64,000 bases of DNA, taken from assembly GCA_964387845.1 (NCBI GenBank), contig CAYLXA010000003.1, positions 32,001 through 96,000 of the forward strand, read 5' to 3'. The notes beneath the pieces were generated by a model. It did not search any database, was not told the origin of the DNA, and worked only from the letters and a program-made list of their open reading frames with translations. Origin of the DNA: an uncultured bacterium. Lineage in GTDB: Bacteria > Omnitrophota > Omnitrophia > Omnitrophales > Abzuiibacteriaceae. A program made the translations under genes and the position numbers. How positions within the stretch are numbered: the first letter of the stretch is position 1; every line of letters begins with the position of its first letter. Shown piece by piece: positions 1 through 57,700 of this stretch.

Positions 1-804
1 GGAGGATTTGTTTCGAGACATGCTGGTATAAATTACTACGGTCACGATAATCATTAATAAAATAAAAAGAGAATTGTGCTGCATGAAACGGCTTGTATCA
101 AGAACAAACTGAGTAATCTCTGGAAGTTTCCGGCCGCCGCCCATACTTTTAAATACTTGTTCAAAAGTTGGGATTACTTTGATCATAAATATTGCGATGG
201 CGCCGACAGAAAATGAAAGCAGAATAGCAGGGTAAATCATTGCTGATGTTACTTTGCGTTTGAACTTTTCGCTTGTTTCCTGATATTTATAAATCTCCTC
301 TAAAACATCCGGCAAAGTGCCGCTCGCTTCGCCGGCTTCAATCAATCCAAGCCAAAAAGGTGGAAATACTTTTGGATAATCCGCTAAAGAATTGCTCAAG
401 CTAAATCCTTGGCTGATTTTATCGATCGTGGAATGAATGACGCGTTTTAAGAGGCCTGCTTTAAGCCCCTGTTCAATAATAGAAAGTGATTTTAAGATCG
501 GGACACCGGCCCGCAAAAGCGCTATCAGCTGGATAAAAAAAGAAGTAAGATCGCTGCCTTTAACACTTTCGAAAAGCGTAATCTCGCCAAACGGTTTTTT
601 TGTACCCTCGGCCTTTTTTTGCTTGCTGCTTGAAGCGCCGAAACCAAAAAGGCCTTTTGCCTTTCCGCCTTCTTCAACGGAAAGGATCAAATAACCTTCA
701 TTCTGAAGCTGCTGGACAATTTGATCGGGCCGTTCGGCCTCTCGGACAAACTGCTCCAACTTTGCATCTGCTTCACGCTTTTTAGCACGGATGGTGAATT
801 TCAT
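1..804 (-). CDS. pilC: Type IV pilus/T2SS inner-membrane platform protein (GspF/PilC family), 5' part; gene continues beyond window start
   Basis: Manual translation of reverse strand from ATG (complement of 802..804): MKFTIRAKKREADAKLEQF... then GEITLFESVKGSDLTSFFIQLIALLRAGVPILKSLSIIEQ... and TM segment AMIYPAILLSFSVGAIAIFMIKVIPTF typical of T2SSF domains; not in ORF track because truncated at window edge. Confidence 0.7.
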   Translation of the reverse strand, partial: MKFTIRAKKREADAKLEQFVREAERPDQIVQQLQNEGYLILSVEEGGKAKGLFGFGASSSKQKKAEGTKKPFGEITLFESVKGSDLTSFFIQLIALLRAGVPILKSLSIIEQGLKAGLLKRVIHSTIDKISQGFSLSNSLADYPKVFPPFWLGLIEAGEASGTLPDVLEEIYKYQETSEKFKRKVTSAMIYPAILLSFSVGAIAIFMIKVIPTFEQVFKSMGGGRKLPEITQFVLDTSRFMQHNSLFILLMIIVTVVIYTSMSRNKSS

Positions 805-806
805 GT

Positions 807-848
807 TCAAGCTCCAAGCTACAAGCTTCAAGCCACAGGCTTCAAGCC
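807..848. repeat. Family A half-palindrome, left arm (ccaagctacaagcttcaagcc...)
   Basis: Matches left arm of full copy at 28664..28738; overlaps last codons of the 4HB gene. Confidence 0.65.
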
Positions 849-1214
849 TTTAACAACAGTTTCTCTAAAGCGATATAATTCCTTGCCTAGCTTTTCATAT
901 TTGCTCATTACTGCATTAAAAACAGATTCATCTTTTAAAGATTGAGTATCAAACAATAATTGCAAATGTTCTTTGGTTTCATCGCACGATGCGATTGCAT
1001 ATGTCAAATATCGTATAAACTCTTGTTGATATTGTTTTCGACCAAATCCTTCGACAATTGCCGCCGGAATTGATTTTGCTGATCGCCTTATTTGGCTACC
1101 TTCTTCATACATTTCTATCTTTGGCAATTTTTGAATCGTCATACTATGAACTTCAACTGCTAATTCATGAGCCAATTTGTATACCCTTAAATCCTTATAA
1201 CTTTGCTTTATCAT
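828..1214 (-). CDS. Four-helix-bundle protein (family typically encoded inside 23S rRNA intervening sequences)
   Basis: 128 aa, MIKQSYKDLRVYKLAHELAVEVHSMTIQKLPKIE...IRRSAKSIPAAIVEGFGR...FIRYLTYAIASCDETKEHL; recognisable 4HB/IVS-protein signature; flanked by inverted palindromic half-repeats (see repeats). Confidence 0.7.
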   Translation of the reverse strand: MIKQSYKDLRVYKLAHELAVEVHSMTIQKLPKIEMYEEGSQIRRSAKSIPAAIVEGFGRKQYQQEFIRYLTYAIASCDETKEHLQLLFDTQSLKDESVFNAVMSKYEKLGKELYRFRETVVKGLKPVA

Positions 1215-1217
1215 TTA

Positions 1218-1262
1218 CGCTTTAAGCTTTAAGCCTGAAGCTTGCAGCTTGTAGCCTGAAAC
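1218..1262. repeat. Family A half-palindrome, right arm (...aagcctgaagcttgcagcttgtagcctgaa)
   Basis: Matches right arm of full copy at 28664..28738; inverted relative to 807..848. Confidence 0.65.
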
Positions 1263-1264
1263 CG

Positions 1265-3448
1265 CTATTCATACGCCACACTCAAAACTTCCTCTAATGT
1301 TGTAACACCCTCTTCAACTTTCCGGACACCGCTGTCGAAAAGAGTTGCTATGCCGGCTTTTTTCTCAGCTTCCCTAAGCAGCTCGATCGGCTCATTGCGG
1401 GCAATCACGCTGCGCATTTCTTCCGTAATCGGCATGATTTCATAAATCGCAACACGGCCCCAGTAACCGATGTCGCGGCAATCTTTGCATCCTTTGGCTT
1501 TGTATATTTTTCGGACATTCAGCCGGAAATCCTTCATTTCTTTATCAGACGCTTCATAGGGCTCTTTACAGCTTGGGCACAATTTACGGACTAGGCGCTG
1601 CGCACCGATTAGAATCAAACTCGAAGCCACTAGATAAGGCTTCACACCAATATCAATGAGCCGCGTGACGGCCGTAGGCGCGTCATTCGTGTGCAACGTG
1701 CTCAAGACCAAATGACCCGTGAGTGCCGCACGCACACAAACATCGGCTGTTTCTTCATCGCGGACTTCGCCGACGAGGATAATGTCGGGATCTTGACGCA
1801 AAAATGCGCGCAAACCGGTTGCAAACGTAAGGCCAATGTCGGGCTTTACCTGCACCTGACCGACACCCTGCATTTGAAATTCGACCGGGTCTTCGATGGT
1901 TAAAATATTCGTTTCGGTAGATTTGACGAAATCAATTGCAGCATAAAGCGTCGTCGTTTTTCCGCTCCCGGTCGGGCCCGTGATATAAATAAGGCCATAC
2001 GGTTTTTCAACTGCATCCTGAAAAGCTTTAAGCTGTTTTTCATCAAACCCCAGGTCTTTGAGGCCTTTTAAGCCAGCACCTTTATCCAAAAGACGCATCA
2101 CGACCCGCTCTCCGAACACCACCGGAACCGTTGAAACACGGACGTCGATATTGCGGCTTTTGTAGGTAATTGAAAACGAGCCGTCCTGCGGGATTCTTTT
2201 TTCGGCGATATCCAACTTAGATAAAATTTTGACGCGTGAGACAACTGCCAAATGCATCTGTTTCGGGGGCGGCGGAAGTTCATACAAAATTCCATCAAGC
2301 CGGTAACGGACAATAAGGCGGTCTTCAAACGGTTCAATGTGAATATCGCTCGCACGGTCTTCGATGGCTTTTTTGAGAAGCAAATCGACAAATCGAATAA
2401 CGGGCGGCTGGTCGGCCTCAGCCATGCGTTCGGCAAGCATGACGCGGCCTTCTGTAACACCGCGGGCAGCTGACTTAGTTTCGGCCTCCATTTGCTTGCC
2501 GGTCACGACTTCTTCTAGCTGAATATCGCCGTAGAAGCTTTGGAGCTTTGCGCGCAAATCATTCGGCGTTGCGAGTACCGGAATAATTTCAAGGCCTGTT
2601 ATTTTTTTAAGATCGTCTAAAAGCAAAAGATCAAAAGGTTTCGCAAACGCGACTGTCAAATTTTTTCCGGACCTGAAAAGCGGAAGCGCAAACCTCTCCT
2701 TTGCAATTTTCTCCGGGAAAATGTCTTTTAACCTTTGGTCAGCCCGGGGATTAAGCTGATCACCCACCATAACCGGCAAATTAAGCTGTTGCGACAAAGC
2801 TACCATAATATCCGTCTCTCGCCGGACAAAACGCATGGTGACTAAGATTTCACCGAGCGGGGCACCTGTCTTTTTTTGATCTGCGAGCGCCTGTTGAAGC
2901 TGATCTTCTGAAATCAAACCCTGGCGGACTAAAATCTCGCCGAGCTTGAGCTTGCGCATGCTGGTTTTAACATCGGCAGACGCGTTTGGCTTATCACTTT
3001 CCTTAAATTCGGTTTTATAAAATGCGTCGATTTTAGCTTCTAAATCCTGTTTGTGCGCAAGCACAGGATCAATATCAAGACTGGTTGCTTTTTTGATATC
3101 GGAAAGAACGTCCGGCGTAAAATTATATGAGAAAGCAACGGTTAGTTTTCCTTCGGTTTTTGAAATGGGCAGCGCTAAATATTTCCGCGCCACAGCTTCG
3201 GGAAAAGCGTACTTGAGTTTCTGATCAGCGTGAGGGATCAGCTGATCACCGATTAAAATCTGAAGTTTATAAATTTGTGAGACAGCAACTACCAGGTCTG
3301 TTTCGCGGCGGATAAAATTGTTCTTGAGGAGAATATCGCCAATCGGCGCCTTACTGTCCTTTTGCTCTGACAGTGCCCGAGACAACTGCTCGGCACTCAT
3401 CAGGCCTTGGCTTACTAAAACATCGCCAAGTGAAGATGGGTCACTCAT
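1265..3448 (-). CDS. pilB: PilB/MshE/GspE-family pilus assembly ATPase with two tandem N-terminal MshEN-like domains
   Basis: 727 aa; Walker A GPTGSGKTTTLYAA; Asp box; tetracysteine CPSCKEP...CKDCRDIGYWGR; two N-terminal repeats each with the MshEN c-di-GMP motif pattern (SLGDVLVSQGLMSAEQLSRALSEQ and KLGEILVRQGLISEDQLQQALADQ). Confidence 0.9.
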   Translation of the reverse strand: MSDPSSLGDVLVSQGLMSAEQLSRALSEQKDSKAPIGDILLKNNFIRRETDLVVAVSQIYKLQILIGDQLIPHADQKLKYAFPEAVARKYLALPISKTEGKLTVAFSYNFTPDVLSDIKKATSLDIDPVLAHKQDLEAKIDAFYKTEFKESDKPNASADVKTSMRKLKLGEILVRQGLISEDQLQQALADQKKTGAPLGEILVTMRFVRRETDIMVALSQQLNLPVMVGDQLNPRADQRLKDIFPEKIAKERFALPLFRSGKNLTVAFAKPFDLLLLDDLKKITGLEIIPVLATPNDLRAKLQSFYGDIQLEEVVTGKQMEAETKSAARGVTEGRVMLAERMAEADQPPVIRFVDLLLKKAIEDRASDIHIEPFEDRLIVRYRLDGILYELPPPPKQMHLAVVSRVKILSKLDIAEKRIPQDGSFSITYKSRNIDVRVSTVPVVFGERVVMRLLDKGAGLKGLKDLGFDEKQLKAFQDAVEKPYGLIYITGPTGSGKTTTLYAAIDFVKSTETNILTIEDPVEFQMQGVGQVQVKPDIGLTFATGLRAFLRQDPDIILVGEVRDEETADVCVRAALTGHLVLSTLHTNDAPTAVTRLIDIGVKPYLVASSLILIGAQRLVRKLCPSCKEPYEASDKEMKDFRLNVRKIYKAKGCKDCRDIGYWGRVAIYEIMPITEEMRSVIARNEPIELLREAEKKAGIATLFDSGVRKVEEGVTTLEEVLSVAYE

Positions 3449-3453: not shown

Positions 3454-5472
3454 CTATGCGGGCTTCACCCGCAGAGGCGATGCGGCAGCTGAACCTTGAG
3501 GCGGAATTCCTTGATTTGCAGGCGCAGCCAAGGGTGTTGGGTTTTCCTCTGTTTTTGCAACCGCCTCTTTGGAAAGACCGGTGATCAAAGACGGTTGATC
3601 AGTTTCTTCTGAGTTTTCAGGCTGATTAGTTAGCGTGTTTGAATCAGACGAGGTCGTTTCTTTTTCTATTGATTCAGCAGCTACCGGTTCTCCGGACCCT
3701 TCCGCTGTGATTCCGATCGGCCAAGAATTGGTCGGTGCCGAAACGGTATTGAGCTTCTGGCTTTCAAGTTGAAGCGCCTGTTCTATTACTTTATTACGCT
3801 CGTCAAAAAACTGATCAACTTCCTCGCTGGCATCCTGGCCTTTGCTTCGATATCTTTCTTTAAACCAGGGTTTATCCCAAAACTTCCAAAACTCACTTGT
3901 TTCCTCTTCCATAGAAGTCATTTTGTCCGGAATAGACCGCGCTTGAACGATCCTGGAGTCTTCTCGCTTCACAATAACCGGCCTTAAGAAAATCATGAGT
4001 TCCCGGTCTAGTTTGTTGGTGGTCCATTTAGTAAAAAATGCACCAAAAAACGGTATATCACCCAAAATGGGGACCTTTCGGCGGATTTTAACCTCATCAC
4101 GCTGTAAGAGACCGCTGATTGAAATGACTTTACCGCTTTCAACCGAAAGCGTAGTACGAGTAGCGCGGATTCTGGGGTCGCGGAAATCCGTGTTGAATGT
4201 GGATGTATCTGCTGTAGCGTAACGGGGTTCTAAAAGTAATGTGATGTAATTTTCATCGTTGATGAGCGGTGTAACTTTCAACGTGACACCTGTTTCCGAC
4301 CGCTCGGCTGTTTCGGTGGTTAAATTTTCACCCGCTCCGCCGCCCGCCGAAACCTGGCTATTAACACCGATTACTTCATTGACCGTGATTTTAATAAAAG
4401 CCGGCTCGTTGTCTAAAACGAGAACTCTTGGCTTCGCGAGAACTTTTGTCCGAGAATCAGTTTGAAGGGCTCGTAAAGTGGCGGTCATTTGGCTGAAATC
4501 ATAACTACCGAAGGACAGCCCTGTTCCTTCTTCAAGTAAATCATGATTATCGGGAATTAAATCTCCAAATTGATTTATTGATGGTATATTAAAAACACCT
4601 CTCGCACCAGAAATTGTACCCAGAGAATTGTTTTCCCCAGACCCGTTCCCCCAATCAGTGCCTAAGTATTTGTCAAAATCGGTCGCTGTTTCCAAAATGA
4701 TTGCTTCGATCAAAACTTGATCAAGCGGATGATCAAGAATGGTTACGACTTTTTCAATTTGCTCAAGACGGTCCGGGGTGTCGGTCACAATCAGGCTGTT
4801 GGTTCTGTCATCAACGGTTACTTTGCCGCGCGGGCTCAACAAATCTTCAATTGTATCTTTAATTTCACTCGGCTCACCACCTGATACAGTTGCCGATGTT
4901 CCAATGCTTGAAGAGCCTACGCCGACACCAGAGCCTGTGGAAGACCCTGAAGAGCCGCCTGCCGAGCTTGATGTTGATTCGCTCAAGCTAAGTACTTTAA
5001 CTTTTGCCGCTCTTACGTATTTTAATTTAAAAACGCGTGTCTCAAGCGGAGCTAATGCATCTTCACCTGTGATACCGCGGATTAAAATAATGTTGCTTGC
5101 GCCCACTTTCTGCATAACCAGGCTATTGCCTTTGATGATTGCCTCCAAAGCATCATCAAACGAAACATTGTCCAAGAATAAACTGATTTTCTTTTTTGCG
5201 GCGTCTTCTGAAGTAACAAAATTAGCGCCCGAAAGCGAAGAAAGGACTTTGAGAACCTCGCTCAAACCAACATCCGAAAACTCGATTGACAGCTTTCCTT
5301 CTTCAGATTCCTTGATATTGGCAACCGGCGCTTCGGCTGTCTCGGTGCTGTAGGCAGATTGATCGTAATCATATTCGGCAGCATTGGCAGGCATCCCAAA
5401 AGAAAAGATGAGACAAACAATAAGAAGCTGGGGTGTGATTATATGATTAAAATGTATCTTAGATAGGTGCAT
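3454..5472 (-). CDS. pilQ: Secretin (PilQ/GspD family) with long low-complexity C-terminal extension
   Basis: 672 aa; signal peptide; secretin signature region VPILGDIPFFGAFFTKWTTNKLDRELMIFLRPVIV; N-domains LIVTDTPDRLEQIEKVV; acidic/Ser/Pro-rich ~170 aa tail. Confidence 0.85.
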   Translation of the reverse strand: MHLSKIHFNHIITPQLLIVCLIFSFGMPANAAEYDYDQSAYSTETAEAPVANIKESEEGKLSIEFSDVGLSEVLKVLSSLSGANFVTSEDAAKKKISLFLDNVSFDDALEAIIKGNSLVMQKVGASNIILIRGITGEDALAPLETRVFKLKYVRAAKVKVLSLSESTSSSAGGSSGSSTGSGVGVGSSSIGTSATVSGGEPSEIKDTIEDLLSPRGKVTVDDRTNSLIVTDTPDRLEQIEKVVTILDHPLDQVLIEAIILETATDFDKYLGTDWGNGSGENNSLGTISGARGVFNIPSINQFGDLIPDNHDLLEEGTGLSFGSYDFSQMTATLRALQTDSRTKVLAKPRVLVLDNEPAFIKITVNEVIGVNSQVSAGGGAGENLTTETAERSETGVTLKVTPLINDENYITLLLEPRYATADTSTFNTDFRDPRIRATRTTLSVESGKVISISGLLQRDEVKIRRKVPILGDIPFFGAFFTKWTTNKLDRELMIFLRPVIVKREDSRIVQARSIPDKMTSMEEETSEFWKFWDKPWFKERYRSKGQDASEEVDQFFDERNKVIEQALQLESQKLNTVSAPTNSWPIGITAEGSGEPVAAESIEKETTSSDSNTLTNQPENSEETDQPSLITGLSKEAVAKTEENPTPLAAPANQGIPPQGSAAASPLRVKPA

Positions 5473-5480
5473 GTAGGGTT

Positions 5481-5846
5481 TTAGCGCTTTTTTATCGGTA
5501 AAGTCTCCGTAATACCATCAGATAAAATATCGACTGATGTTTCGCCAATCTTAACTACCGTAATTCCACCCTTATTTTCCCCTTCGGCATAAGCCTGCCC
5601 ATCAATAATTACATAAGCACCGCGCGGGCCTCTTCCGACGCCTTGCACTTGAAAACTTGACTTTTCAACTCGTTTGACAGCTTCCTTCTTAGCTTTTTGG
5701 AAAATGCTCATTTCCTGAGGAACCATAGGGTCCCGCAGTCTTTGAACCGGTTGCGGTTCCTCTGCAAAACATACTGCGTGAACGCCTGCTATTAGAATAG
5801 CCCCAAATATGATGAAAACAAGCTTTAATTTAATGAATGGTCGCAT
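5481..5846 (-). CDS. Small periplasmic protein, possible PilP-like pilotin
   Basis: 121 aa with N-terminal hydrophobic signal (LVFIIFGAILIAGVHAVCFA); position between pilO-like and secretin genes. Confidence 0.35.
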   Translation of the reverse strand: MRPFIKLKLVFIIFGAILIAGVHAVCFAEEPQPVQRLRDPMVPQEMSIFQKAKKEAVKRVEKSSFQVQGVGRGPRGAYVIIDGQAYAEGENKGGITVVKIGETSVDILSDGITETLPIKKR

Positions 5847-6400: not shown

Positions 6401-6419
6401 CGTCTTATCCGTTTACCTG

Positions 6420-7982: not shown

Positions 7983-8013
7983 GGATTAATTTTGATGAGC
8001 TCGGGCCGAAAAC

Positions 8014-8793: not shown

Positions 8794-8857
8794 GGTTTTG
8801 TTTGTTTTAATTCGGTTAATTTTACCTTTTAATTAGTAAAACACTGCGTTGAGTTTC

Positions 8858-8886
8858 TTTCATTATCGACTACTTATTAGTAGTCC
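8858..8886 (-). terminator. Hairpin (cgactacttattagtagtc) immediately downstream of glmS stop
   Basis: Perfect 8-bp inverted repeat with 3-nt loop seen at about 8862..8882, in the 107-nt spacer after glmS. Confidence 0.4.
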
Positions 8887-8900
8887 CTTAATAGAAATCA

Positions 8901-28663: not shown

Positions 28664-28738
28664 GCTGCAAGCTACAGGCTACAAGCTTCAAGCTTAATCA
28701 ATTGAAGCCTGAAGCTTGTGGCTTGCGGCCTGAAGCTG
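28664..28738. repeat. GC-richer palindromic repeat, family A full copy (gctacaagcttcaagc - loop - gaagcctgaagcttg)
   Basis: About 75-nt hairpin in nuoE/nuoD spacer; its two arms match the half-elements at 807..848 and 1218..1262. Confidence 0.75.
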
Positions 28739-31964: not shown

Positions 31965-32048
31965 AGTCAGCGTACAGCGGACAGCGTATAGCGTTCAGGA
32001 TCAGGTTCGATTAACTTTACCTGACCGCTGAGCGCTGCACGCTGAACG

Positions 32049-37111: not shown

Positions 37112-37127
37112 TGGACGCGTATTATAT

Positions 37128-42731: not shown

Positions 42732-45700
42732 TTACGCCGCTTTTCCAAGTACGGCGCGGCTAAAGAGCGTATGCATGAGTGAGCTGATAAATTCCGAGCT
42801 CGGATCGATCACGTCGCCCAACGAACGGAAATTGAACGAATCATTATGAGCGATTAGAAGCTGCGCAGCCTCAACGGCTCCCGGTCGGCCCAAAACTTTT
42901 GGAATATCACGCCGCGTGAGTTTTGAGAATAAATCGTGCTCGCCAATGGCCACAATCCGAGTCGTATCGCCTTTTGCATTGAGTTCATGTTTTAAGCGGT
43001 CGATTAAAATATTGTACGCTTGATCCGCCGAAAGTTCGCGGCCGACACTCAAACGCTCGCGCGTATAAAGCTGCAAGCGCGATCTTTGCCCGCTTTGCTT
43101 GCCAAAAATGTCGGCGTTTGGAAATAACTCTTCAACAGCCCTTTCGGCAACAAATGTGTTATCAAATTCGGAAGCGACAACCGAAAATTCGATTTTTGAA
43201 CCGGGATTTGCACTCATATCCGCCAAAATCGCTTCGCGCAATTCCGAACGGTTCTTCAATTCCTCAAACGAGATTACAATATTCCCCTTCACGTTTGACG
43301 GAATGCTTGCTTGATTCGCTTCACGCCTCAATTCAGACCGGGATTCTTGAGTTTCACCAAAAACCGCCTTAAGTCGATCCAAATATTGTGTCCGGTAAGC
43401 GCCCTCCGGAAAGTCTTCCAACTCGTCGGGATGGCTGCGGGCGGCGTCTGCTTCCTGTTCGACCTCATCGCCAACCCGTTCATCCTCTAAATATTCTTTG
43501 ATCACCTTCGTGGCCGCTTCAAGCTGTGCTTGGGTAATTCCCAATCGTTTAGGTGCTTCCAAATAAATTGCGATCGGTGTTTCATATATTGTGAAAAGCG
43601 TGGTGGCGGTTATCCGGCTTGAAAAATGATTCGCCGGATTATTTTCTTCACCAATCCAATAACGGACACCTGCCTCGATCAAAGGCAGTGTCAAGCCGAG
43701 CAATATTCGGCTTGGGCCTTCATGCAAGCCGGCAGCGTGATTTAAAACTGCGTGTTCAAGATGAAAAGAACTGTTGTCCAAACGGCTTTCAAAATGATCT
43801 TTAAATTCATTCCGGATATGCTCGATCAATGCCTCATCGCTTGTGCGCAATTCAGAGCGGGATTCGTCCTTTCGTACAAGAGCGCTCTTCCAGCCTCTTG
43901 ATTTTTGGCCGTCAGCGCCAACCGCCATCAGCATGTTGCCAAGTTCGTACGTTTGTAAATTGGTCCTGCCAAATACAGCATTTGTTAAAATTTTTACTTG
44001 CACACTTTTATCTTCGATTTCTGAAATTACTTTTAAGATTGGATTAGCATTGGTTAAAGCATCTTTAATGATCCACCTCGCTAAATATTTTGGAAACTTT
44101 AAGAAAAATTCTTCTTGTTCCAGAAAAGTCAAATCAGAAAATTTTTCATCCAAAATTCTGATCAATTCATCCGTTGTTTTGACCTCGCCAAATCTTGGCC
44201 AAGCCGGGAAGTTTTCCTGAATAAATTCTTGTATTTTTAAAACTCTTTGTGCATCGTTAGAAAATTTTTGTCCTTTTGTTGCTTCTGAGATTAACTGATT
44301 TGTCAGAAGGCGTGGATTTTCTATTTGATATAAATTCGAAATTTGAATTCTTTCATCTTTGGATAATTCCGATATTTTCTGCCGAAGACGGCGTTCTAAA
44401 TCCATATCTTTTTCAGGATCAATAAAGGGCAATTCGTAGAATGAGGCGTCTGCTAAATCAGGATGATGACGGGTTAAATAAGTCAGTAAAATATCTTGGA
44501 TGCTTCTGTTTTCCAAAGGTACGTTGCCATCGCCAAATTCCCGCACTAAGAGTTCTTTTTTATTTGAATCACCAGATATTAATAATCTATTCGAGGCATC
44601 AATAAAAACTTCCGGAATAATTCCGGGGAATGCGAGAACAATCTCTCGTCCTTGCCGGAAACTATTCGGCTGAAATTTTTCCTGTGCCCAATCCGGAATA
44701 TCAGTTCTTCCCCAAAGTCCGCCTGCTTCACCCATAAAATCCCGTTTTAATTCTCTTTCTAAAGACTCAAATGAAACACCAGCGCGCAAAAGCCAGCTTA
44801 ATTTGGTCCGCGCTTTCGAGAAAGTCATGTGATAAGGAATATTAATGGCGCCTGATTGCGAAACATTTGAAACAACAGGGATTTTCTTCCTTTTCAAACT
44901 TTGAATAGTAGCCCTGATATATTCGATCTCGGGGTTCTTTGAAAAATCGCCCTGGATAACAAGTCCTGCCCGAACGCCGGCTTGCTCTGCGTGCCGCTCG
45001 ATTCGATTGCCGGCTTGAAAGAGCACCAGCGCAGGCGTTGTTTCATCTATAAGCAAATGCTCAACATAACCAAATTCTTCATTTTTATGAAACTTTGGTT
45101 GTTTTTCTAGATTGGCCAATTTGCTGCTTACTGTTTGTAAGAAATCCATATCGAAACTGATATTTCCCTTGGAATCAACGGCGCCGATTGCTTTTCCATA
45201 ACTAGCAAAAAGACTCCCTTTTGAAGACGAGTCCGTTCTGATCTTCGAAATAAGACTTCCGAGATAGATTTGACTGTCAATGACAACATAGACCAAATTT
45301 GGAATATCTGTACGTTTTGCAACTTCTTCAGCTGCTTTCAAATTTAATATCTTTTCCTTTTCATTAACCGTGGAAGATCCTGTTAAAACAATTCGTGTCG
45401 GTAATGATCCATCAAATTCAAGCGAAAGAACCAGGCCTGTTTCTGCCAAGGTGTCGGTTCCGTGCGTGAGGATAATTCCACCCATTTCTCTTTGAGAAAC
45501 CTTGATCTCTTCGGCTAATGTCGTCTTCCTCGAGATTTCATCTTTGATATGATCAATTATTTTTTCCCATTCTTTCGGGCCAATATTCGTACTATCCGGA
45601 TTTTTATCGAAAACACTTTTGTAAAAAACAGTATTCTTTAAATGCGTTAATAAAACTCTTACCGCATCAACAGTCTTCCGCGCAAATTCGCCGATCATAT

Positions 45701-48700
45701 CAATCGTTCCGCCGGCATTTAAGATTGAAACGCCGGACAATTCTTTCTGAAGTTCTGCAATACTTTGCCCGCTGCGCAATTCGGATCTCACGTTTTCTTC
45801 AACCGGCTCTTCGGCATTCGGCTCATCGAGCTGTTTCAAGACGCGGTTTGTGGTAGCAATCGAATCTTCAAAAACGCCCAGCTCTTCCTTCGCTTTTTTC
45901 AATTCTAATAATTCCCTTGCCTGATCTTCAGGAAGTTCGACAATCCGGTCTTTGATTTCCAAAATCTTTTCAAGTCTGTCCGGACTAACGCCCAGCGCTT
46001 TCCTTAAAAATGCGGAATCTTTTAAATAATCAAAGAGCTTTTCGACCGCTTTGGCCATATCAAAAGGAGGAAGGATTTTGATGTATTGATCAATGTCGGG
46101 TGTTTTGTTTTCCCATGCATCTTTCAAGATCGTCACATTCTGGACTATTTTTTTCTTCGTTCCCTTTCCTCCCTTCACCGGAGCATCCACAATCTTGGGT
46201 GCCAATTCGATGCCGGTTAAACGAGCTATTTCCGGCATCCTGGATTCTTTGTTATAAAGCTCTTTTCTAACCCGGTAAGGCAGCCGCATAACCAGATCTG
46301 CATGAATACGAGCTCTTAATAGTGCTTTATACTCAGGGCTTCCGAATTCAATCGGTTTTTCGGGTTCAGGCTCTTGCGTGACAGAGGAATTTTCGAATGA
46401 ATCGACTAATGGGGTTTTTCCTATGATCGCCCGGGGTATCTCCAAACGCCTATTCGTTACCGCTGCCTGGCGAGCGTTTTTAGGTAAAAATTTATCGGCG
46501 AAATGCGGCGGATACGGATCCGCATTAAGTTCTAGAACCGTTTCGCGCCTAATCCCATAAATTAAATCTGAAGTCACATTCAATATTCTCGCCAACTTGC
46601 CCACTAATCTAGTAACTTCGGTGAATTTGACTTGTTTACTCCCGGAAAGCACTGCGTGAACATGCCCATAGGTTTCTTGTATTTGATTAAAAAGCTCGCT
46701 GGTAGTGATATGAGTAATGCCTCTTGCTTCAACAATGATTCTAATTCTGTCCCAATATGTCAAACTTGGATCAAACAAAGATTCGATAATGGCTGGCGTA
46801 AGAGCATAAATCGTCCATTGATCAACCGGAGATGCTCTTTCAATTTCCGAGACAAATGGTGGTTGCTGTTCTGGTTGGGGCGCTTCGGAAGCAGTTTCTG
46901 GAGTACTATCAATGTTTTTTAGCATTTCCGACAATCTAAGCGGCAACATTTCTTCTGCAGTTTCTTCTATCGTACCCGTCAGGGGTTGTTCTTCTGTTTC
47001 TGAGGGTTTAGCTTCAGTCAAAACTTCTTGTTTTACCAACTCAAGTTCTTGCTCGGTAGTCAAACCCAATCGTATGGAAAACTGTTCAAAGAGCATGATT
47101 TCTGGCCCTAAGATCCTTCTGATTTCTTTACCCTCTTCGCTTTCAGGAGTGTGGAGCAATTGTGCAAACTCCAAAGTATCTACTAACACTTCCCGGCTGG
47201 CAATACGCGGCCCCCCAAATGCGGGGTTGGTCGGCGGTACAAACAATAAACCTCGGTCAATCATATGCTGCAATGCTTCACCCATACGGGCTCCGCCGAT
47301 CGTGGTACCGAGCCGCGGATGCCAAACGACGTCCTGCGATTGGCCTTCCGATTTCGTATAAATTTCTTCCCAAAGAATCAATGCAATCAAGAGAGGCGCC
47401 ATTATCCTGCCTTTGTTCGGCCCGCTTTTGTATTTGAAAAGAACGTCGGGATCCTTCAGTAAAGTATCGGGAAGCAGATATTCTTTCACTGAAAATTTCA
47501 AATATTCTTTCAATGCGGCTTGATCCACGGAAAGATTTTCAAACGGTTGGTCTGGATTTCTGTTTAAGATTGCTTCTTCAATTTTTTTGCGAACCTCCGC
47601 ACCCATTTCATGATCAACTTCGAGCTGATTTTTGCTGTTAAACAATGATTCAAAATCCAACCCCACATGATTCGTGTATTCAGACATAGCTTCTACTTGC
47701 CATGGCTCTAGCTTTTCTGAAAGCCATTCGTGCACTTGCCCTACTCGAATGGTAACGTCCCGGTATTTTTCATCAGAATAAATTTGGTCAACTAATTTGC
47801 TAATTTCTTGAGGGTCTTCTTCTTTGATTGTCTTGAAAAATAAGTTTTCAAGATCGGCATCTCCCGTCAAATGATGAAGCAGCATATACCGAAGAATTGT
47901 TTTTTGCGTATTGCCTGCAAACCGCATTCCTCTCACAGTATCTGAATCCCTCATCTTAGTAATCGCTTTCATGGAGGAGCGCCGGATATTACCATGCATG
48001 CGCTCGACTGCCTGGCGATTAAGTCCGAAAATCAAATAAAGATCGATGATCATAAGCTGGGTTTCAACTGGAAGAGCTCCGCTTTGCTCGAAGCTTCTCT
48101 CAACAGCTTTATCAATCAATCCAATTTGACCTTCAATCAACAAATGTGTACGCCGGCTCGAATCCATCATCGATTTCAAAAGCTTCAATCGGTGGCCTTC
48201 GGCTAACGCTAAATCACGAAATTCGATCTGAAGCGTTGTGCTGCGATTCATTTCTATCTGGCGTGAAAAAACTTTGTCCAGTTTTTCAAACGCTTTTTCC
48301 AAGTCTATCTTTGCCTGGCCGATCAACTCTTCCGCAAGCTCCGGTTCGACTTGATCCACCAAGTGATCGGCTTGGTTTAGTTTTGCTTTTGCCTGGCCTA
48401 AATAATATTTAAACCATTGCTTATAAACTTGGGTTGAAATGTCTTCATAGATAGAACGTAAACGCCAATAAGCTTCTCCCCATTTGCTGGATGTTTGGCT
48501 CTCTTTAAATGAATCATCGTCCAAGAATGTTTTTACGGTTACGGCAACCTTCATCATGGTTTCGTAAAATAAATTAATTCTTGCTTGTTGAATGGAAATA
48601 TCCGATGCGCCGGATAGTGACTTGAAGTCTTTGTGCAAACGCCCGTAAACAGGAGATGTTCTGCTTTCAAAAAATATAGACTCTTTATTTTTAATATCCA

Positions 48701-51700
48701 AAAGAGAAAGCAAAACATCCAACTTTTTTAAGACGGTGTTGAGATGTCTGTTTTGAAGAATGGGCGGGATTCTGGCCGTTAAAGCATGGGCGCCTTCCAA
48801 CCATGAATAAAACGCATTCCGCTCATCAGAAGTTCCCATTAAATCGATAAATTCATCTAATTCCTTTTTTAACTTTACCAAGCTATCAAAGTGGCGAACC
48901 AGGTCGGAATTCTTCAAATCCGAAAGAAATGCATCTAGAAAAGCAGATGATTGAGACGCTATTTTCAACTGCTCTTCAAGTTTCGCCCGGCTTTCGGCAG
49001 TATTTTCGGAGGCCAATGCAGTCAAGGCAGTTTGGCGTAAAGCAGAAATGGATTCTACCTCGATAAACTTTTTGGCCAACTCGTCAATTTTCTGGATTCT
49101 CTGAATAATTTTTTCACTGCGGGTTTTCCGAACAAAAGAAACGGTTTCATTTTCATTTGATTTAACAATCAAATTTAAAATTAACGGCAGGGCTTCCTTT
49201 CTGAAGAATTTGCCCACGATTTTCCGGATCTCATCCAGTTTTTCTGACCGTCCTTTTTCCGGATTATTGGCAAGTTGATTAATGCTCAAAATTCCTTCGT
49301 CAACTTCAAGAAGCCACGAAAATACAGTTTCTATTTCACTTGCGGTGCCTAGATCAGAAATAAATTTTTCAAACCGGCTTTGGATTTCTCTCAGTTTGTG
49401 ATAAGCATCCCTGTTCTCACTTTCGGTAAGACCGTCAAATATTTTTTTCAGAATTTCAAAAGATTTTCTTGCTTCCGATCCAATATTTTTAAGATCTTCA
49501 AACCCTGCAAACGCCGTTTCGATGTCGAATTCCCCGTCACTTGAAGCAGGAATTAATTTGGATAAAACAAATGAGTCTAGATCGGAAAACCATGCGTCTG
49601 AAAAAAATGCTGCATATTGGGGCGCTGCGGCCGCATAAGTAGTTTTGCTGCGTGTGATTTGAGACAGTAATAAATTCCCGCGGCTATTCGCTGATTTCCA
49701 GCTGTTCATATTCATGCTTTCAAGCGAACGCAATTCTGATTTCTTGCTTTCAGCCGCATTCAACGTTTCGGCAATGAACGTTTTCATTACGCGATAGACA
49801 TATTCGGTTTGCTCTTGGGTAGGTTCGCTATTAAGAAAACGATCATAGAATTTGGCGGGATCCGAACCGCGCGGGTAAGCCTGTGAATAAGACAAAAGCC
49901 AGGCGCCAATAATAGATTGTCTAAACGTTGGAAGAGGAAGTTTTTTTAATTGTACGCCGCGGAGGCCGATGTTGACGAAAATAGCCGGCACATTTGCATC
50001 AAATTCTTTCCAACGGCGAAGGCGATGAATCGGCGCAAACCGGTCAAGCTCGCCCTTCCAAGGAATATAATCAATCTTCAAATCCTGCCCGTCGACCGTA
50101 ATTTTTTTCAAATCTTTGAGCAATTCCATAGCTTTAGAAGTGGCAATAATGCGGATCGGAGCGCGCGTTTCGCGAGGGCGTCTTTCCATAAACGTGATAT
50201 GCCAATCCATCATAAACGGAATATCGGGAAATTTTTGATGCAGGACCTGCATGAATTTTTCTCCGATTGGCGCCGGAATAGATTCAAAATTAGGCTGTGA
50301 ATCCGGTTTAATCTCGGCTATCAATTCTTCCGAAAATGCAGCCAACATTTTTTTGAATAACTTGTCCCGCTCTCCATGAAATTCGAGACGTTTTTGAAAA
50401 TCTGCGGCGCCTGCCGACATTTTTCGTTTCGTGCTCAAGCGCCGCTTTTTTCTTTCAGAAGGCCAATCTTTTTCTGCGTCATTTGTGATACGCTTTTGAA
50501 CAATATGCAGCAAGCGACTATTGATTTCATTACCGATTAAACCTTCCCGATCGGAAGCTTTGCTGAAATGAAAGTCGATCAAATTTAAACTGCTCTGGTC
50601 ATCACTTGTTTCAATTGCACGATCAATATCTTCTATCACTTTTTCCAATGTTTCAACAAACCACCGTTCTTTATCTTTGGAATATCGCTTTGACGCGGCC
50701 CCGTGCTCAAAAATTCTTCTCCCTTCTCTTCTATAAGCTTCGAGCATCCGCATAACACCCCGGTAAATCAAGTTGGTCTCGCCGACCGGCGTAAAAGACG
50801 ATCTCCACCTGCCGATTGCAGCATACCCGCCAAATTCTTGTTTCAAATCACGAATCATTGCTGCCGTGCGCTCCAAAGGATAATCACGATCAGTCAAGAT
50901 AAGCGGTGCTGTTCCTTCGGAGGATTTGACCGATTCCAGCAATTGAATTGCAGAACCAATGCTTTCCGGGAACAAATCTTCCGGAGCAAGCAGGCCCAGC
51001 TCAAACATGATTTGATTAAAAATGGTGCGCTGAGGGCCTCTCAGGCCTTTTATCCATGGATCTTTTTCGTAAATGGGCCGGATGCTTTTTGCGGTGATAT
51101 TGCCGTCTTCATCGCGATATTGATTGAATATATCGTTTTCGATTAAATATTCGATCGTGTTGTTTAAATAATCATACTGACGTAGCGTATCGGTCCATAA
51201 CAATAGAAGAAAAACAAGTTCGGGAGCCGGTTTTTGAAAGGGCATGAGCTGCTCGATTAATTCGTCGGATTCAAGAACTTTTCGGTAATAATCGACTAAA
51301 TTTTCAAATTTGGGATCTTTTATTTTATATTCTCCGCGATCAAACTTGCGAATAACTCTCCTAAGCACTATTCGAACGTCGTGCTTGAGCAGGGCTTCAT
51401 ACGCATACAACACACGTGATATTTTGTTGTCATAATCCCACGACGGATTTTTAGCAAAATCACTCTCGATCGCGATAAGGGTCCTAGCAATCAAACTTGC
51501 TGCATACATATTAGACCCCGGCAGCGGGTTGCCATACATGAGATCGGTTACATTTGGATGGACAATGTTTCCTGCGCGATCTGTCTCATCATTGGAAACA
51601 ACTTCATTGGGGAACACCTGATCCATAATAGCTTCACGGCTTCGAGTCCTCCGGTATTCTTCCCGTGCCCATTCTAAACGTTTTTTAAGTTGCCACCCTT

Positions 51701-54700
51701 TCGACCCTATTCCCAAAACAGACAACAACATCGCAATTGCATAATCCCGATAACCGACGTTTCCGACCATTTCAAACCGCAGCCTTGGATTGATTGCACG
51801 ATTCAGCCGGCGTACTACTTTTCGAAGAGAATGTTCATTTGCGTATTGAAACGCCGGAATTTTAAGTGCGATCGTGCTTGGAAGGCCCGCCTTCTCTTTA
51901 ATAGCACGCTCGTAATGATTTTCTTGCTCGTTTTCCGCTAATCCTGATAAAGCATGAAATATTTTCCTTTCGGCAGAATCCTCAGACTCCAAATAAGCAT
52001 GCCAAGCACGAGATTCAAATCGCCCCCACAAGTTTCCAAGTCCATGAAATTGGCTTTGAAATGCAAAAACCTGGCTTGCGCTCGCCATTTTATTTAGATG
52101 ATAACTGGCTTCGACAAGTTGACGATAAATATCGGGCAGGCCTTTTGAAGGCGTCATTTTGTACCGTTCTAGAGTTTCAAATGCGGCGTTCTTATGATAA
52201 TCAAAATAGAATTCGTGAATGCTTATGATTAACTCTCTGGTTTTTTCTTTAAAAACATCAATGGCGTGCGATTTCCCAAGCCCCATTGCGAGATCATAAA
52301 ACGATTGGAAGTACCGCGATAACCCCTCTGAGACTGCAAACCGGAGTCTCGCGTCGGTCTTGGATTTTTCGAGCAACGTATTTGTTATATCGCGAACAGG
52401 TTCAAAGAACACTTCCAACTTTGATTCGACGTTACTCTTTTTATTTCTTTTTGTACTGCCCTTTTTGATGTTGGCTGTCGCCAAACTAATTAAAAATTCT
52501 TGTGCGGTCTTTTGAGAAAAAGAATTGATGATGTGTTCCCACAAAAATATTGGTACTTTGATTTTAGATTTTGCACTCTGCACTAAATCTAAAAACATCC
52601 TTTCGGTCATTCTTTTATGATTGAAATTTTTTACGGGCAATACACGCACGCCGGGAATCGACTGAATTAAGAAATAGCTTTCTCTTTGGTCCTTATCTCC
52701 GCTTGTTTCTAACTTGCGGCTCGTAATGAGTTTGACTCTCGCAATAATTTTTAAGTCTGTTTGTTCTCCTCCGCGTGCAATCAAGAAACCATCTTCACGG
52801 CTTGGATTTAGTTTTATATCAAATTTTAAATCGTTTTGATTCTTTTCGCCGATGATCTGTTGGATTTTGTCCAAATCTTTCTGCCGATGCCATGCGGATC
52901 TGATTCCGACAAGAGAACCGCCCACCGATTCAACTCGCACTCTTGATATTTGTTTAGGGACAGATTCAACACGAATATGCATTGATTCGGTATTGCCATC
53001 CTCGTCAAAAACAACTGTAAATGTGCGACCGTGGCCAACTGAAACTAACTGCCGACCCACAAATCTTTTGGTACCAATCCGCTTCGCTTGAGAGATCAAT
53101 GCATCATCCGATCTGAGTTCAGACTTTTTTGTGGCCTGTCTTATTTCAAAATACTGCTGATAAAGTTCCTGAAAACTCGGCGTTTCCTGGATTTCAAGTT
53201 CGATTTCTCTAGCCATGTCCACTGCAGTGTCATTCAGAATATTTTCGTATGCACCAGCATCATAAGCTTTCTGTGAATCCTTACCGATTTCGTCCAGCCA
53301 TTTCCTCTCTGCCGGAATCCAGTCTTTATAATCATAAAAAATACTTTCGACATCCTCATAGGCCGTGAAGCGGATTAATTGTTTAAGAATAGCTAAAACC
53401 GCAGGGCTTACCGCAACGCTAATTGGAACATTGGCGTATTTACCTTTCATGTAGATTAAAAACAGCATGAACCGCCGCCAGCCAGCCATTTCGCCGCAGA
53501 TACTGACTTCCAACCCTGCCGCGCTCGCATGCTCAATGATTGTTTCGATCTTTTCAAGAAATGTGGAAAGCAATTCTGTGTACAATCTTCCGCCATATTC
53601 ACGGTCCCGGCCGAATGTTTGTTGCAATAAATCATTGGTGCCGATAGAAATAAAATCGACGTATTTCTTCTGTGCGATCACCGGAAGATTTTCAATGGCT
53701 TTGTTGGTTTCGATCATAATTCCGAACGGAATTTTGATCCGGAAGCGATTAAGATCGTGACGAAATTTTTCTAACTCCTGATCAAAGATAGTCCGGACAA
53801 ATATTACGTCATCCTCAGTTTGAACCATCGGTACAAATACTTTGACCGCAGATTCTCTTCCGGTTTCTCCTTCGGCGTGAAAATGCTCTGCAGCCATAAT
53901 GCTCGCGCGAATTGCCGCTCGAATTTGAGCTCTCAAGATCGGTTCGCCTTCCGTAGGATCCCTGTAAAGATCGAACCCGATTTTTGTATTCGTTTCTGAA
54001 ATGGCTGAAACAGGCTTGTCCAGCTGACGGTCTAACGTTCTTACCGCAAATGCGCCACGTAAGATAATCCTGCCCTGAGATAATATTTGAGTAAGATCGT
54101 CTTCATATTCTTTTATATTTGCTTCCCAGGATTCGTGGCGGTAGAAATGCGTAGGGAAATTGACTTCGGTTCGATAGAGCCGCACACCATCCGTATCTGC
54201 GGAAAGCTCTTGAATATGTTCAAGCGCATCCGCACTTCCGCTAACTTCCATCAACAGTGAAGCAACGCTGTCTTTCTTTGCAAACACAGGTTCTAGTGCG
54301 AGGGTTTTTGCCAATTGCAAATACGCTTCTTCCTTGACGATTTTCTGTTCATATTCGGCAGCATCTTTTTGTGAAGGATTGGCATGCAGCATTCCGTTTT
54401 CCCCGTCCGCATAAATGATTTGCCCTGACTTGATATCTGCAAACTTACCTAGTTTGGCCTTGAGCGCGGTAAGAACTAAGATCCCGTAATTAGCGCCGAC
54501 AATAACCCAATGTTCGGTGGGAGATCCAAACTCGGCTACAACCGCACCCAAATTTGGGTAAGCTTTTTTTAGACTTAAGAGAGTCGGCGCATTCATCGCT
54601 CCTGCCAAATACGGCTGTTCTTTTGAGACTTTTAAAATAACCACCAAATGATCAACTTTATCCGTCGTAAATTGCTGATCCGACACCAATTGCCGCGCCA

Positions 54701-57700
54701 TTTTTTCGTTTAGAATCAAAACTGCGTCTTTTAAAAGAACTAAAATATTTAGCAGCGTTTTCTCCTGAAGATCGGATGTGTCTTCAGAACTCATCTTGGT
54801 GCCGATATCCAAAATCAACTTTTGATAAGCATATTGGAGCGCAACATCAGGATACACATTTTTTGTATTGATTAACCAGCTGGTTTCTTCTTGAAATCGA
54901 TCAAGAAGCTCTTGAAATGAATACTTATCCGGCATGTTGTCGACAGGCGCTTGATCAACTAATTGGTCAGCCGCTGATTGAAATGCGCTTGCTATTTGAT
55001 CGTTGTATTCTTTGATTTTCTCTTGATAGAGTTCCTCGGACATTCCTTCCATTTTAAAAGACTCGCCATAGCTCAAAAAACTCATCATCCGGTAGAGCGT
55101 GGAAAGGATTTCCCTATTTCGAGCCTTGATCTGTTTTTCTTCATCCGTGCCCTCGGTTCCCTTGAGAGATTCGATGGCATTATGGATATCTTTAACAATT
55201 CTAGGAATTGGCTGGCCGGCTTTTTCAAGCTGTGTATAAGCATTGGGGTGCGCATACAACTTAAACGCATCGAAATATGAGATTTTTTTGTCCTTCAAAG
55301 ATTCCATCACTAATTTTATTGAATCGGTGTTATATTTAAAAAATTGCCATGTGATTTCTAATGCTTTTGCATCACGCAGACGCCCTTTTTGCTTTAGATC
55401 CCGAATTCTAATTTGAAAATCGAAATTAAAAATATCTAGAATCGCTTTAAAATGTTGCACATCACGTTCGGCAGCTTCAGGGCTAAGAATGGCAGGCTGT
55501 TTAAATTTGCTGCTAAATTTTTCCAAACTCTCTCCTAGCGCTCTGCTCGACCACAAATAGTAAATCTGAAAACCAACGCTATTCACTTTTGATTTAATTT
55601 CTTCTTCAAGAAGATGATCCGCTCTTTTCCCTTCGCTTTCTATTTTTTCCAGAACAGAATCTTTCAATTCGTCTAAAACTTGCAGTAAATTTTTGTTCGA
55701 TTGGTCTTCTTCCAAAATCATCCTGTCTATCTTTTCTGAAAATTTTACCTTTTCGATTCTTATCTTTTCTTGAACATCTGGTTCTTCATCCAAATTCGAT
55801 CTCAACGAATAAGCAGCTGTAAAAAAGTCGTCTGCCTGGAAAAGCATCGTGGTGCCTCGAAATACACGCCGGGCCTGATTTTTATTGCCCTGCATCAGAA
55901 CGGTTCGAAGTTCTGATCTTTTTTCCGATTCGCCTTCGGCATCACTTGTTTTGCTTTTGGATTTTTTCTCTTCGATCATTTCTTCAATGAGATCCAGCAG
56001 ATCTGTTAGTTGAGGGGGCAAAACTCCTTCGATTGCGTCCATGCTCAGCCCTGTATTCGCAATCACTCTTGCGATTATTTCGAGAGCGCTGTTTCCTGTA
56101 GAAACCGGATTTGCATTTATAATTGCCGCTATTTCCTCGTCATTTACTGATTCTTCTTTCGGGTCAAAATAAGAAGCGATTCCGGATTGCGCAGCAGGTT
56201 TTTCGGATTTGTTTTCTGCTGCTTGAGGTTGGGTTTGCGGCTCTGCCGGCTGTGCTGATTTGGCTTTTTCAATGACGAGTTGAAAAAAAGCGTCTCTCTG
56301 GTTTTGCTTTATCGATTTGAATTGATCATTTATAAACTTAGCGAAGGTCGATCCTGCTCTTAAGGGAAATTTATTCACGCTCGGATTCCCTTGTTTATAT
56401 TCGCTTGCCAATGCGCCACTCTTGTTAGCGTCTGTGATAATTGTCCGCTCAATTTCTGTTAGGTTGCCTTCCTTCCCCTCGGCAAGTTTCACAACGCCGG
56501 AAAAAAATGCTTCCACGTTTGCCTGCTGCGTCATATCTGCCGGAACTCCCGCCGCCCAATCGATCAATTTTTGGATTTGCGAATTGACAGCCCGCAATTC
56601 AGAACGATCGTTCTTCTCAGATTGTTGAGAAGGTTGTATAGAAACTGCATACGAGGCCAATTTCGAATCATCAAAATATGCCCTATCAATAAACTTTTCA
56701 AAAGTGGCTTGCCAACCGTCAGGGTTGTAGTAATACTCGGGCAACGATTTTCCTGATTTTGCTTGCACTTCGGATGCAAACCTGAGCAAAGCTTGTTGGA
56801 TAGGAACAAGAAACCGGTTATCAAAATTCTCCGCCGCTGTCCCCGGATTATTTTTGTTGATCAACGCACGCGTATATCCCAATTGCAGCGTCATTAGTTT
56901 CAAAATGTATCTTGATTTTTTCCAGTTCTTATCATTTGCGGCATCACGAAATCTCGATGAATCATAATGAAGGCGCGTTAATGTTGCCGCAAGTGATTCC
57001 GGATATTGATCCCTGGAGACATAGCGGACTTTAAGCCAATCAGATGCAACATCATCTAAAAATACCGAAACAACTCTGTGGGGAGTTTGTTCAATAACAA
57101 CCGACTCTGGATCCTTGAAACCAACCACCCCATTCTCATAAGCAAGATGGCCGACTTCGTGATACACATGATAATCGCTTACCCATTCAAATAACCGTGC
57201 CCTGTCTTCCTTATTTCCAATCTCACCGTGGTGGATAATTTGATGCTGGAGCATTGCCATTCTGAGTGAAATTCGGAGTCTGCGATAAGTTTCGTCATAA
57301 ATTAACGAAAATCCTGTATTGTCAGCCATAGATTCCGAATCTTTCATTTCAGCCGAAAAATTGATAGAGGGTGTCTCTAAAAATTTCTTCAACTCTGCCG
57401 GTAACTTTTCATAACTCTCAGAGGTTCGGCTTATCATCAAAAACGAATCCAAAATCTCTTCCATACTTAAATTGAGCTTCTTGAGTTCGCGATAAATCAT
57501 GATTAGCATAGAAAAAATATTTTGGCTTAATTTGTCAGGAAATTTACTTGTTGAAGATGGGATATAAAGGAATGATGATTGACCGCCTCGATAGGCCGAA
57601 ATAATAACATCAATTGGCCTTGCAAAAAGCCATCTTGAAAAGTAAATAAGCATCACTTGTGTAAGTTTTTTGATTTGAGACAGGTTGGGAAATTCTGGTT

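Follow-up and report, generated by a model that had tools for sequence, protein, structure and literature searches.

Between the pilB and pilC genes of an uncultured bacterium of the Omnitrophota (family Abzuiibacteriaceae; GenBank assembly GCA_964387845.1, contig CAYLXA010000003.1, positions 32,001 to 96,000 of the forward strand) there lies a segment that is probably a horizontally acquired selfish cassette of the type known from the intervening sequences (IVSs) of 23S rRNA, i.e., a promoterless gene for a four-helix-bundle (4HB) protein of the S23p family held between inverted arrays of heptamers. It occupies positions 806..1260 of the 64,000 nucleotides that were analyzed, which we refer to as the window. 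Gene and arms recur together, as one unit, at loci that have no relation to each other and in unrelated lineages, and at the pilB-pilC junction of relatives this unit is present, absent or swapped for a different one. Comparison of the sequences suggests that the 4HB gene at this junction is a horizontally spread cassette and not a part of the pilus machinery. An initial annotation of the window had already proposed an IVS-like selfish cassette in a protein operon, and the recurrence of the unit, its turnover at the junction and its IVS anatomy all bear this proposal out.

The 4HB gene itself (828..1214, minus strand) is an intact open reading frame (ORF) of 128 aa, which is the sole ORF of the pilB-pilC spacer and the single 4HB ORF of the whole window. 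Upstream of it in the operon is the gene for a PilB/GspE-type ATPase (1265..3448, minus strand; 727 aa in the ORF list, stop codon at 1265-1267), the homologs of which carry PF05157 and PF00437 and, for the best of them, are named GspE/PilB of Omnitrophota. Downstream is pilC (1..804, minus strand; T2SSF family, ATG at 804-802), which is truncated at the edge of the window and is collinear with a gene at 12659-13936 (PF00482) of a related locus, L006 (loci retrieved for comparison are numbered in this way). With Pfam matches reported at E<=0.01, the 4HB protein matched PF05635 over positions 1-105 of the 106 in the profile (E 1.8e-27, 96.1 bits against a cut-off of 33.8), and it also matched TIGR02436 (E 3e-26, 91.8 bits, cut-off 24). 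All of the coordinates given in the initial annotation are upheld. A search at E<=1e-5 gave 2505 homologs, and among those with a name the closest are from Candidatus Omnitrophota; no exact copy of the 4HB or PilB product was on record, and the scan of GTDB species genomes gave no match at 100% identity. The sole solved relative found by sequence is Xcc0516 (PDB 2gsc; E 1e-4 to the 4HB protein), the structure of which is a homopentamer of four-helix bundles (PMC4990558).

Both arms of the cassette consist of tandem heptamers, a make-up that the initial annotation had overlooked. Read in the sense of the operon (minus strand), the 5' arm (1219..1260) runs TTCAGGC TACAAGC TGCAAGC TTCAGGC TTAAAGC TTAAAGC and the 3' arm (806..847) runs GCTTGAA GCCTGTG GCTTGAA GCTTGTA GCTTGGA GCTTGAA, i.e., (TNCARGC)x6 upstream of the 4HB gene and (GCYTGNA)x6 downstream of it. 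The Tandem Repeats Finder program reports periods of 7 and 21 at 1214-1260 and of 7, 14 and 21 at 806-848, in agreement with a lag-7 scan. The arms fit very closely between the genes: the 5' arm is separated by 4 nt from the pilB stop codon and by another 4 nt from the 4HB ATG, the 4HB ORF runs for its final ~7 codons (KGLKPVA*) through the 3' arm, and the 3' arm ends 1 nt ahead of the pilC ATG and contains a GGAG, 9 nt upstream of that ATG, which is the only ribosome-binding-like motif for pilC. A repeat search delimited inverted arms at 815-847 and 1226-1258 (33 nt, 85% complementary; 53 nt at 74% when extended), and in an ungapped alignment the arms span 42 nt each (806-847 and 1219-1260) and form 33 Watson-Crick and four G.U pairs, the remaining positions being, on the sense strand, one A.C and four other mismatches. 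The duplex energy of the 4HB flanks (-56.6 kcal/mol; z = -5.7 against 1000 shuffles) is the best among 48 genes of the window, for which the median is -20.3 and the second best value -36.5 kcal/mol, and in the sense RNA of 790..1280 (491 nt) the arms are paired in both the minimum-free-energy (MFE) and the centroid folds (z = -4.35). An intrinsic terminator was considered for this stem and was ruled out, as no T-run follows it and no terminator-like site was found in 600..1500. Nor was a promoter-like site found on the cassette's own strand in the same interval, so that the cassette looks promoterless and reliant on read-through from the operon.

The arms have a close relative elsewhere in the window, namely a compact heptamer hairpin without a gene (28664..28738, designated family A) in the spacer between nuoD and nuoE, two minus-strand genes that were identified by their Pfam matches. 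The initial annotation had noted that the flanks of the 4HB gene match the arms of this hairpin, and this kinship is well supported. The arms of the hairpin are ~81% identical, in register, to those of the cassette, and both of the common strings that had been quoted are present; one 16-mer, GCTTGAAGCTTGTAGC, is found without a mismatch both at 818-833, within the 3' arm, and at 28678-28693, within the solo hairpin. With up to three mismatches allowed it has 14 hits in the window against 0.44 expected, a number reached by 0 of 100 shuffles, and 12 of the 14 fall in the two cassette arms and the solo hairpin. Chance similarity of the arms was ruled out by this count together with the ranking of duplex energies. 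The order of the variant units is also shared, being TTCAGGC-TACAAGC-TGCAAGC-TTCAGGC-TTAAA in the 5' arm of the cassette and TTCAGGC-CGCAAGC-CACAAGC-TTCAGGC-TTCAA in the solo hairpin, which makes the likeness one of homology and not only of a common motif. The solo hairpin folds with -39.3 kcal/mol on the minus strand and -41.4 kcal/mol on the plus strand (z ~-5.2). The initial annotation went further and described the cassette as the same palindrome with the gene as cargo in its loop; the gene and arms do constitute one cassette that is related to the family A palindrome, but whereas the gene may have entered a pre-existing palindrome, of which the solo hairpin would be an empty copy, it is just as likely that the solo hairpin derives from a cassette that lost its gene.

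That the arms belong with the gene is evident from a comparison of 38 4HB genes with their flanks. The set includes the window copy, 31 of the 33 loci obtained from a scan of GTDB species genomes (two were omitted from the stem analysis), two further copies from locus L005, the third 4HB copy of which is GTDB locus L014, two pilB-pilC copies of relatives and three nuoC-nuoD copies from a metagenome scan; cassette boundaries for the comparison of arms were anchored by tblastn. These copies span Omnitrophota, Planctomycetes, Desulfobacterales, Nitrospira, cyanobacterial plasmids and archaeal contigs that bear mcr and ftr genes. Ungapped complementarity between the flanks extends to at least 18 nt in 30 of the 38 genes and to at least 25 nt in 26 of them, and the median duplex energy of the flanks is -39.9 kcal/mol for 4HB genes versus -20.8 for 213 control ORFs from the same loci (Mann-Whitney p = 2e-9). 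Heptamer arrays stand on both flanks of 39% of the 4HB genes and of 7% of the controls. The arms are heptamer arrays in nearly all 38 copies and octamers in one, with a sequence that varies by copy (GCTNCAR, GATRCAG, GATGCCG, TTTAATG, ACCAGNN, GGGTGTR and others) and is complementary within each copy. At unrelated Omnitrophota loci, including L012, L013, L014 (where the cassette sits between an AMP-ligase gene and an unannotated gene) and L017, 4HB proteins that are ~70% identical are accompanied by the same GCYTGNA/TNCARGC arms, and the association of arms with a 4HB gene extends down to 30-47% protein identity on plasmids of Nostoc, Calothrix, Geminocystis and Picosynechococcus.

The same comparison gives some indication of the molecule in which the arms pair. 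In 25 of 33 loci both neighbors are co-directional with the 4HB gene and in one of the 33 both are antisense to it, and the gaps between gene and neighbors are mostly 10-60 nt, i.e., mostly the arms alone. Across the cassettes, mismatches on the sense strand are of the G.U kind in 58 cases versus 33 of the A.C kind (binomial p = 0.011), and the sense strand pairs better in 24 cassettes versus 12 for the antisense strand (Wilcoxon p = 0.008). Read together, the G.U excess and the advantage of the sense strand are a modest but consistent sign that the pairing matters in RNA.

Some of these loci are crowded. In L005, three 4HB cassettes with three different arm families lie within one 12-kb polysaccharide locus, where a heptamer array at 1813-1845 is also found in frame within an epimerase gene (translated as ...ADYSLDANRYSLIRGD...), with its inverted partner 1.8 kb downstream in an intergenic spacer (3639-3670). 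The 4HB copy of L001, which has arms of the GCYTGNA family, adjoins an insertion sequence (IS) and a diversity-generating retroelement (DGR): family A arms enclose the IS (rve transposase) together with the 4HB gene at 4784-6526, and directly downstream (6529-9036) is the DGR, with bAvd and reverse transcriptase genes and with GACAGAA-type heptamer arrays that resemble the repeats of the Coxiella IVS.

Turnover of the unit is seen at the pilB-pilC junction of relatives that have PilB orthologs (89% identity for L006-L008, 71% for L009 and 69% for L010/L011). The 4HB protein encoded between pilB and pilC in L006 is 34% identical to that of the window and its gene has arms (TTTAATG / CATTAAA) unrelated to the window arms. 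A third 4HB gene, whose product is 38% identical to the L006 protein, occupies the junction in L010, with arms of the ACCAG type. In L009 there is no insert, and the genes are joined as pilB-TAA-AAAAT-ATG-pilC with a spacer of 5 nt. Of a family A arm, L006 retains ~21 nt between its cassette and pilC, and this stretch is homologous to the arm's outer end in the window. Simple nesting of the L006 cassette into an old hairpin was ruled out, the relic being on the pilC side only with none on the pilB side; this one-sidedness fits recombination via the flanking genes or the repetitive arms, which is also the simplest option for how the cassette spread.

The nuo operon offers a comparable picture, in that some relatives have 4HB cassettes at the nuoC-nuoD junction, one junction upstream of nuoD-nuoE. 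At nuoD-nuoE itself, which in the window is the site of the family A hairpin, a different heptamer hairpin is found in L045 and most loci have nothing. In other lineages, palindromes that are not made of heptamers occur at the nuoD-nuoE junction (L047, L061 and L083), that of L061 (9325-9500) and L083 (4880-4960) reading GTCATTGCGAGGAGCG...GCAATGAC. Palindromes of unrelated kinds are attracted to the nuoD-nuoE junction.

The distribution of the 4HB subfamily crosses phyla and, apparently, domains. Relatives of the window protein at 51-71% identity are found in at least seven bacterial phyla, among them Omnitrophota, Planctomycetes, Kryptoniota, WOR-3, Desulfobacterales, Nitrospira and Poribacteria, and also on archaeal contigs, two of which have ftr and mcrB genes scoring above the NCBIfam cut-offs. 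One record, L028, is titled Nitrosotalea sp. and encodes a methyl-coenzyme M reductase beta subunit (TIGR03257, 580 bits); it is probably mis-binned, yet archaeal. No close 4HB relative was found in phage records or in IMG/VR contigs, and hence no viral vehicle is identified.

The insertion sites of IVSs in 23S rRNA are in helix 9, 25 or 45, which the IVS lengthens while leaving the ribosome undisturbed. Like these elements, the window cassette has a PF05635 ORF of ~120 aa within terminal inverted repeats that form a long stem, has heptamers in the arm that adjoins the ORF, lacks a recognizable mobility enzyme and would be transcribed within its host's transcript. Its host site differs, being the stop-start junction of a protein operon and not helix 25 or 45 of 23S rRNA, and RNase III excision is documented for IVSs whereas the window has a predicted stem of ~40 bp. 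The Coxiella IVS, for example, has a 28-bp stem of terminal inverted repeats that is cut by RNase III, and just upstream of its S23p ORF are tandem GACAGAT heptamers in a copy number that varies among strains (PMC4990558). A second and direct example is L128, the Azospirillum lipoferum 4B plasmid AZO_p2, in which a 4HB ORF (1501-1842) lies inside a 23S rRNA gene (Rfam LSU match 286-3342), and the segment 1400-1910 is a true 23S IVS with the ORF between inverted GAGGACG / CCGTCCT heptamer arrays. This IVS, which is unannotated in the PLSDB table, is ~1.2 kb into the 23S gene, a position consistent with helix 45. The window cassette and the 23S IVS are thus identical in anatomy and differ in host site alone. 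The parallel with the 23S IVSs that the initial annotation had drawn is therefore real beyond the family name, as the anatomy of the Azospirillum IVS and the Coxiella heptamers attest, but no close relative of the window 4HB subfamily was found inside rRNA. Rfam reported no rRNA or any other known RNA family in the 64-kb window, no rRNA location was found among the 33 closest relatives of the window 4HB, and among all the loci that were fetched rRNA was present in one, as the 23S of Azospirillum. As it is not inside 23S rRNA, the window element is properly called an IVS-like cassette and not an IVS.

The cassette lies in the sense orientation of the operon and would presumably be transcribed only within the pil polycistron. 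In that RNA its arms would pair as a ~40-bp stem with the insert as the loop, so that the pilB end and the pilC start come to lie side by side, much as an IVS extends an rRNA helix. By analogy with the IVSs of Coxiella, Salmonella and Leptospira, such a stem is, in bacteria, a likely substrate of RNase III. The 4HB protein, with a predicted pentameric, nucleic-acid-binding fold like those of Avd and Xcc0516, may be the element's own factor.

Apart from the cassette, the window is rich in hairpins of the same general construction. There are about ten heptamer hairpins in at least seven sequence families, of which one only is associated with a gene, and the further hairpins fill spacers between co-directional genes and fold with z from -3.4 to -10.6. 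In the nuo operon, a solo hairpin at 28103-28170 means that the consecutive junctions nuoD/nuoE and nuoE/nuoF are both occupied. Solo hairpins at 31966-32053 and 63275-63358 each occupy a spacer and adjoin stop and start codons. A hairpin with TATCTNG / CNAGATA arms (37122-37268) lies between thyX-like and transketolase-like genes and contains in its loop a nested second palindrome that is G+C-rich (CCCTCTCCCCC...GGGGGAGAGGG; MFE -83 kcal/mol, z = -10.6). Two complete hairpins of one heptamer family (AAGTGNT), at 40786-40866 and 42668-42729, bracket a 1.8-kb block with three small ORFs, and the second of them has two additional heptamer units in its right arm. A giant ORF (42732..59243, minus strand; about 5,400-5,500 aa, with a signal-peptide-like start) contains two others in frame in its N-terminal part, at 58982-59047 and 58010-58073, the translations of which, KGQVASSKGQGTNLDPGPMTLAP and NSVKRYALSDKSDLTPNAYP, are free of stop codons.

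Two known systems of intergenic repeats invite comparison with these hairpins and with the cassette. The STRRs of heterocystous cyanobacteria are tandem 7-bp repeats that form hairpins between co-transcribed genes, e.g., hupS-hupL, and for which roles in transcript stability or translational coupling have been proposed (PMC2670836). The window arms and the approximately ten solo hairpins are likewise tandem 7-nt, intergenic and hairpin-forming, but STRRs have been described as repeats only, whereas the 4HB arrays are inverted pairs around a gene, and the window differs further in that its host is an omnitrophote and not a cyanobacterium and in that its heptamers are not canonical STRR sequences. 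A literature search found no described link of STRRs to 4HB genes, nor any of 4HB/S23p genes to heptamer arrays outside rRNA. In the REPIN/RAYT system a single gene lies between inverted palindromic repeats, and gene-less hairpins are dispersed through the spacers of the same genome (PMC3116915). The match of the cassette arms to the gene-less hairpin at 28664..28738 recalls this arrangement, and solo arrays near a cassette are closer to its arms than to the arms of other genomes (mean distance 2.15 vs 2.67, p = 7e-4). The differences are that the flanked gene here matches PF05635 only and not an IS200-like Y1 (tyrosine) transposase, that the repeats are heptamer arrays and the protein a four-helix bundle without known catalytic activity, and that 4HB genes are numerous within a genome (L005 has three of them in 12 kb), while a RAYT is present in one copy.

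Among other explanations that must be weighed, the element could be a domesticated part of the operon, i.e., a host stem-loop of the STRR or REP type that tunes the stability or the translational coupling of the pilB-pilC mRNA, with the 4HB protein as a host RNA-binding regulator. The roles proposed for heptamer hairpins in cyanobacterial operons (PMC2670836) would fit such a function, as would the bias of orientation to the sense strand, the presence of a 4HB gene in the pilB-pilC spacer of three of four related genomes and the fact that the GGAG in the 3' arm, the sole visible ribosome-binding site of pilC, is conserved in L006. We nevertheless regard domestication as unlikely, given that the three occupants are not orthologous (34-38% identity, with unrelated arms) in genomes whose PilB proteins are 69-89% identical, that L009 does without an insert, and that the same 4HB subfamily is found among polysaccharide, nuo and cmr genes, alongside archaeal genes of C1 metabolism and within 23S rRNA. 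It is improbable, too, that gene and arms are independent features, the heptamer hairpins being a general repeat of the genome and a free-standing 4HB gene having landed in or near one of them without forming a unit. That only one of the window's many hairpins has a gene, that the loop at 37122-37268 has accommodated another insert and that 34% of control genes have a heptamer array on at least one flank are what might be expected if this were so; it does not account for close 4HB homologs in other genomes that have arms of this same family although their loci are unrelated, for an association that persists at 30-47% protein identity in the cyanobacteria and the rRNA IVS, or for flanks that pair far better than those of controls (p = 2e-9) and have arrays on both sides more than the controls do (39% vs 7%).

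The remaining alternative is that the 4HB gene is an Avd accessory gene left behind by a DGR that has lost its reverse transcriptase and template repeat. PF05635 represents the Avd superfamily; Avd resembles the 4HB protein in fold superfamily and as a pentameric four-helix bundle, being a small, basic, nucleic-acid-binding partner of a retroelement, and the homolog in L001 directly adjoins a bAvd and reverse transcriptase pair. That DGR, however, has a separate bAvd gene of its own, and the window protein differs from Avd in that PF05635 is the only match reported, with none to bAvd (PF22296). In the syntenic tables of L006 and L010, the gene order of which is fitted by the ORF sizes of the window, all genes within 10 kb are of the pil, glmS or TPR kind, none of them being RVT_1, and there are no template or variable repeats nearby; 25 of the 33 homologs lie between co-directional genes (judged by ORF strand, most of the neighbors being unannotated). 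Derivation from a DGR was rejected for want of a reverse transcriptase and strikes us as very improbable.

Several observations also count against the selfish, IVS-type cassette that we favor. Signatures of mobility, such as a transposase, an integrase or a target-site duplication, were not seen: the cassette contains no transposase, and neither in the window nor in L006 or L010 are the arms bordered by a direct repeat, so that the term "mobile" draws on comparative patterns only. The polymorphism at one junction could be due in part to allelic exchange via the conserved pilB and pilC flanks instead of repeated insertion. The G.U excess on the sense strand is only modest in size. No Shine-Dalgarno-like purine run is evident before the 4HB ATG, and, as that ATG lies 4 nt away from the stem, translation may yield little protein; low production is also reported for the S23p protein of Coxiella. 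Archaea are not generally known to have RNase III, and the presence of cassettes in them means that cleavage by this enzyme cannot be a universal rationale.

What is new here, and supported by the comparisons described above, is the occurrence of an IVS-type cassette at the junctions of protein operons and the heptamer-array stem as a signature of the family. A wider reading, which we offer tentatively and hold to be possible but doubtful, is that heptamer-armed 4HB genes make up one ancient, cross-domain family of mobile cassettes that settle wherever a transcribed site tolerates a long stem, be it in rRNA helices, operon junctions or even coding regions, and of which the abundant gene-less hairpins, both STRRs and those of this genome, would be non-autonomous derivatives, with the pentameric 4HB protein recognizing the arrays and driving their spread or maintenance. 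If this were true, it would amount to a REPIN/RAYT-like partnership without a known transposase, and the 23S_rRNA_IVP genes that have been called CRISPR-associated would be hitch-hiking cassettes instead. Such genes, situated between cmr genes, have been read as having CRISPR-associated functions (PMC3936711). A 4HB gene with heptamer arms lies between cas10/cmr2 and cmr3 on a plasmid of Picosynechococcus sp. PCC 7003 (L130, 1489-1845). The cmr-embedded 23S_rRNA_IVP genes are compatible with the cassette picture.

The 23S IVSs and their S23p ORF were already familiar in the early 1990s, but as far as we know there is no agreement on where they come from, what they do or how they move. The finding of an IVS-type unit in protein operons as well, across phyla and apparently across domains, points to a general cassette and not a curiosity of rRNA, and makes the question of IVSs and S23p tractable both comparatively and experimentally. 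It also makes 4HB cassettes a candidate origin of heptamer hairpins of the STRR type and calls for caution in annotating, by guilt of association, the 4HB genes that occur in cas, nuo, pil and polysaccharide operons. For the organisms that harbor them, the cassettes are predicted to place long stems in polycistronic mRNAs, and these may affect the stoichiometry of the neighboring genes.

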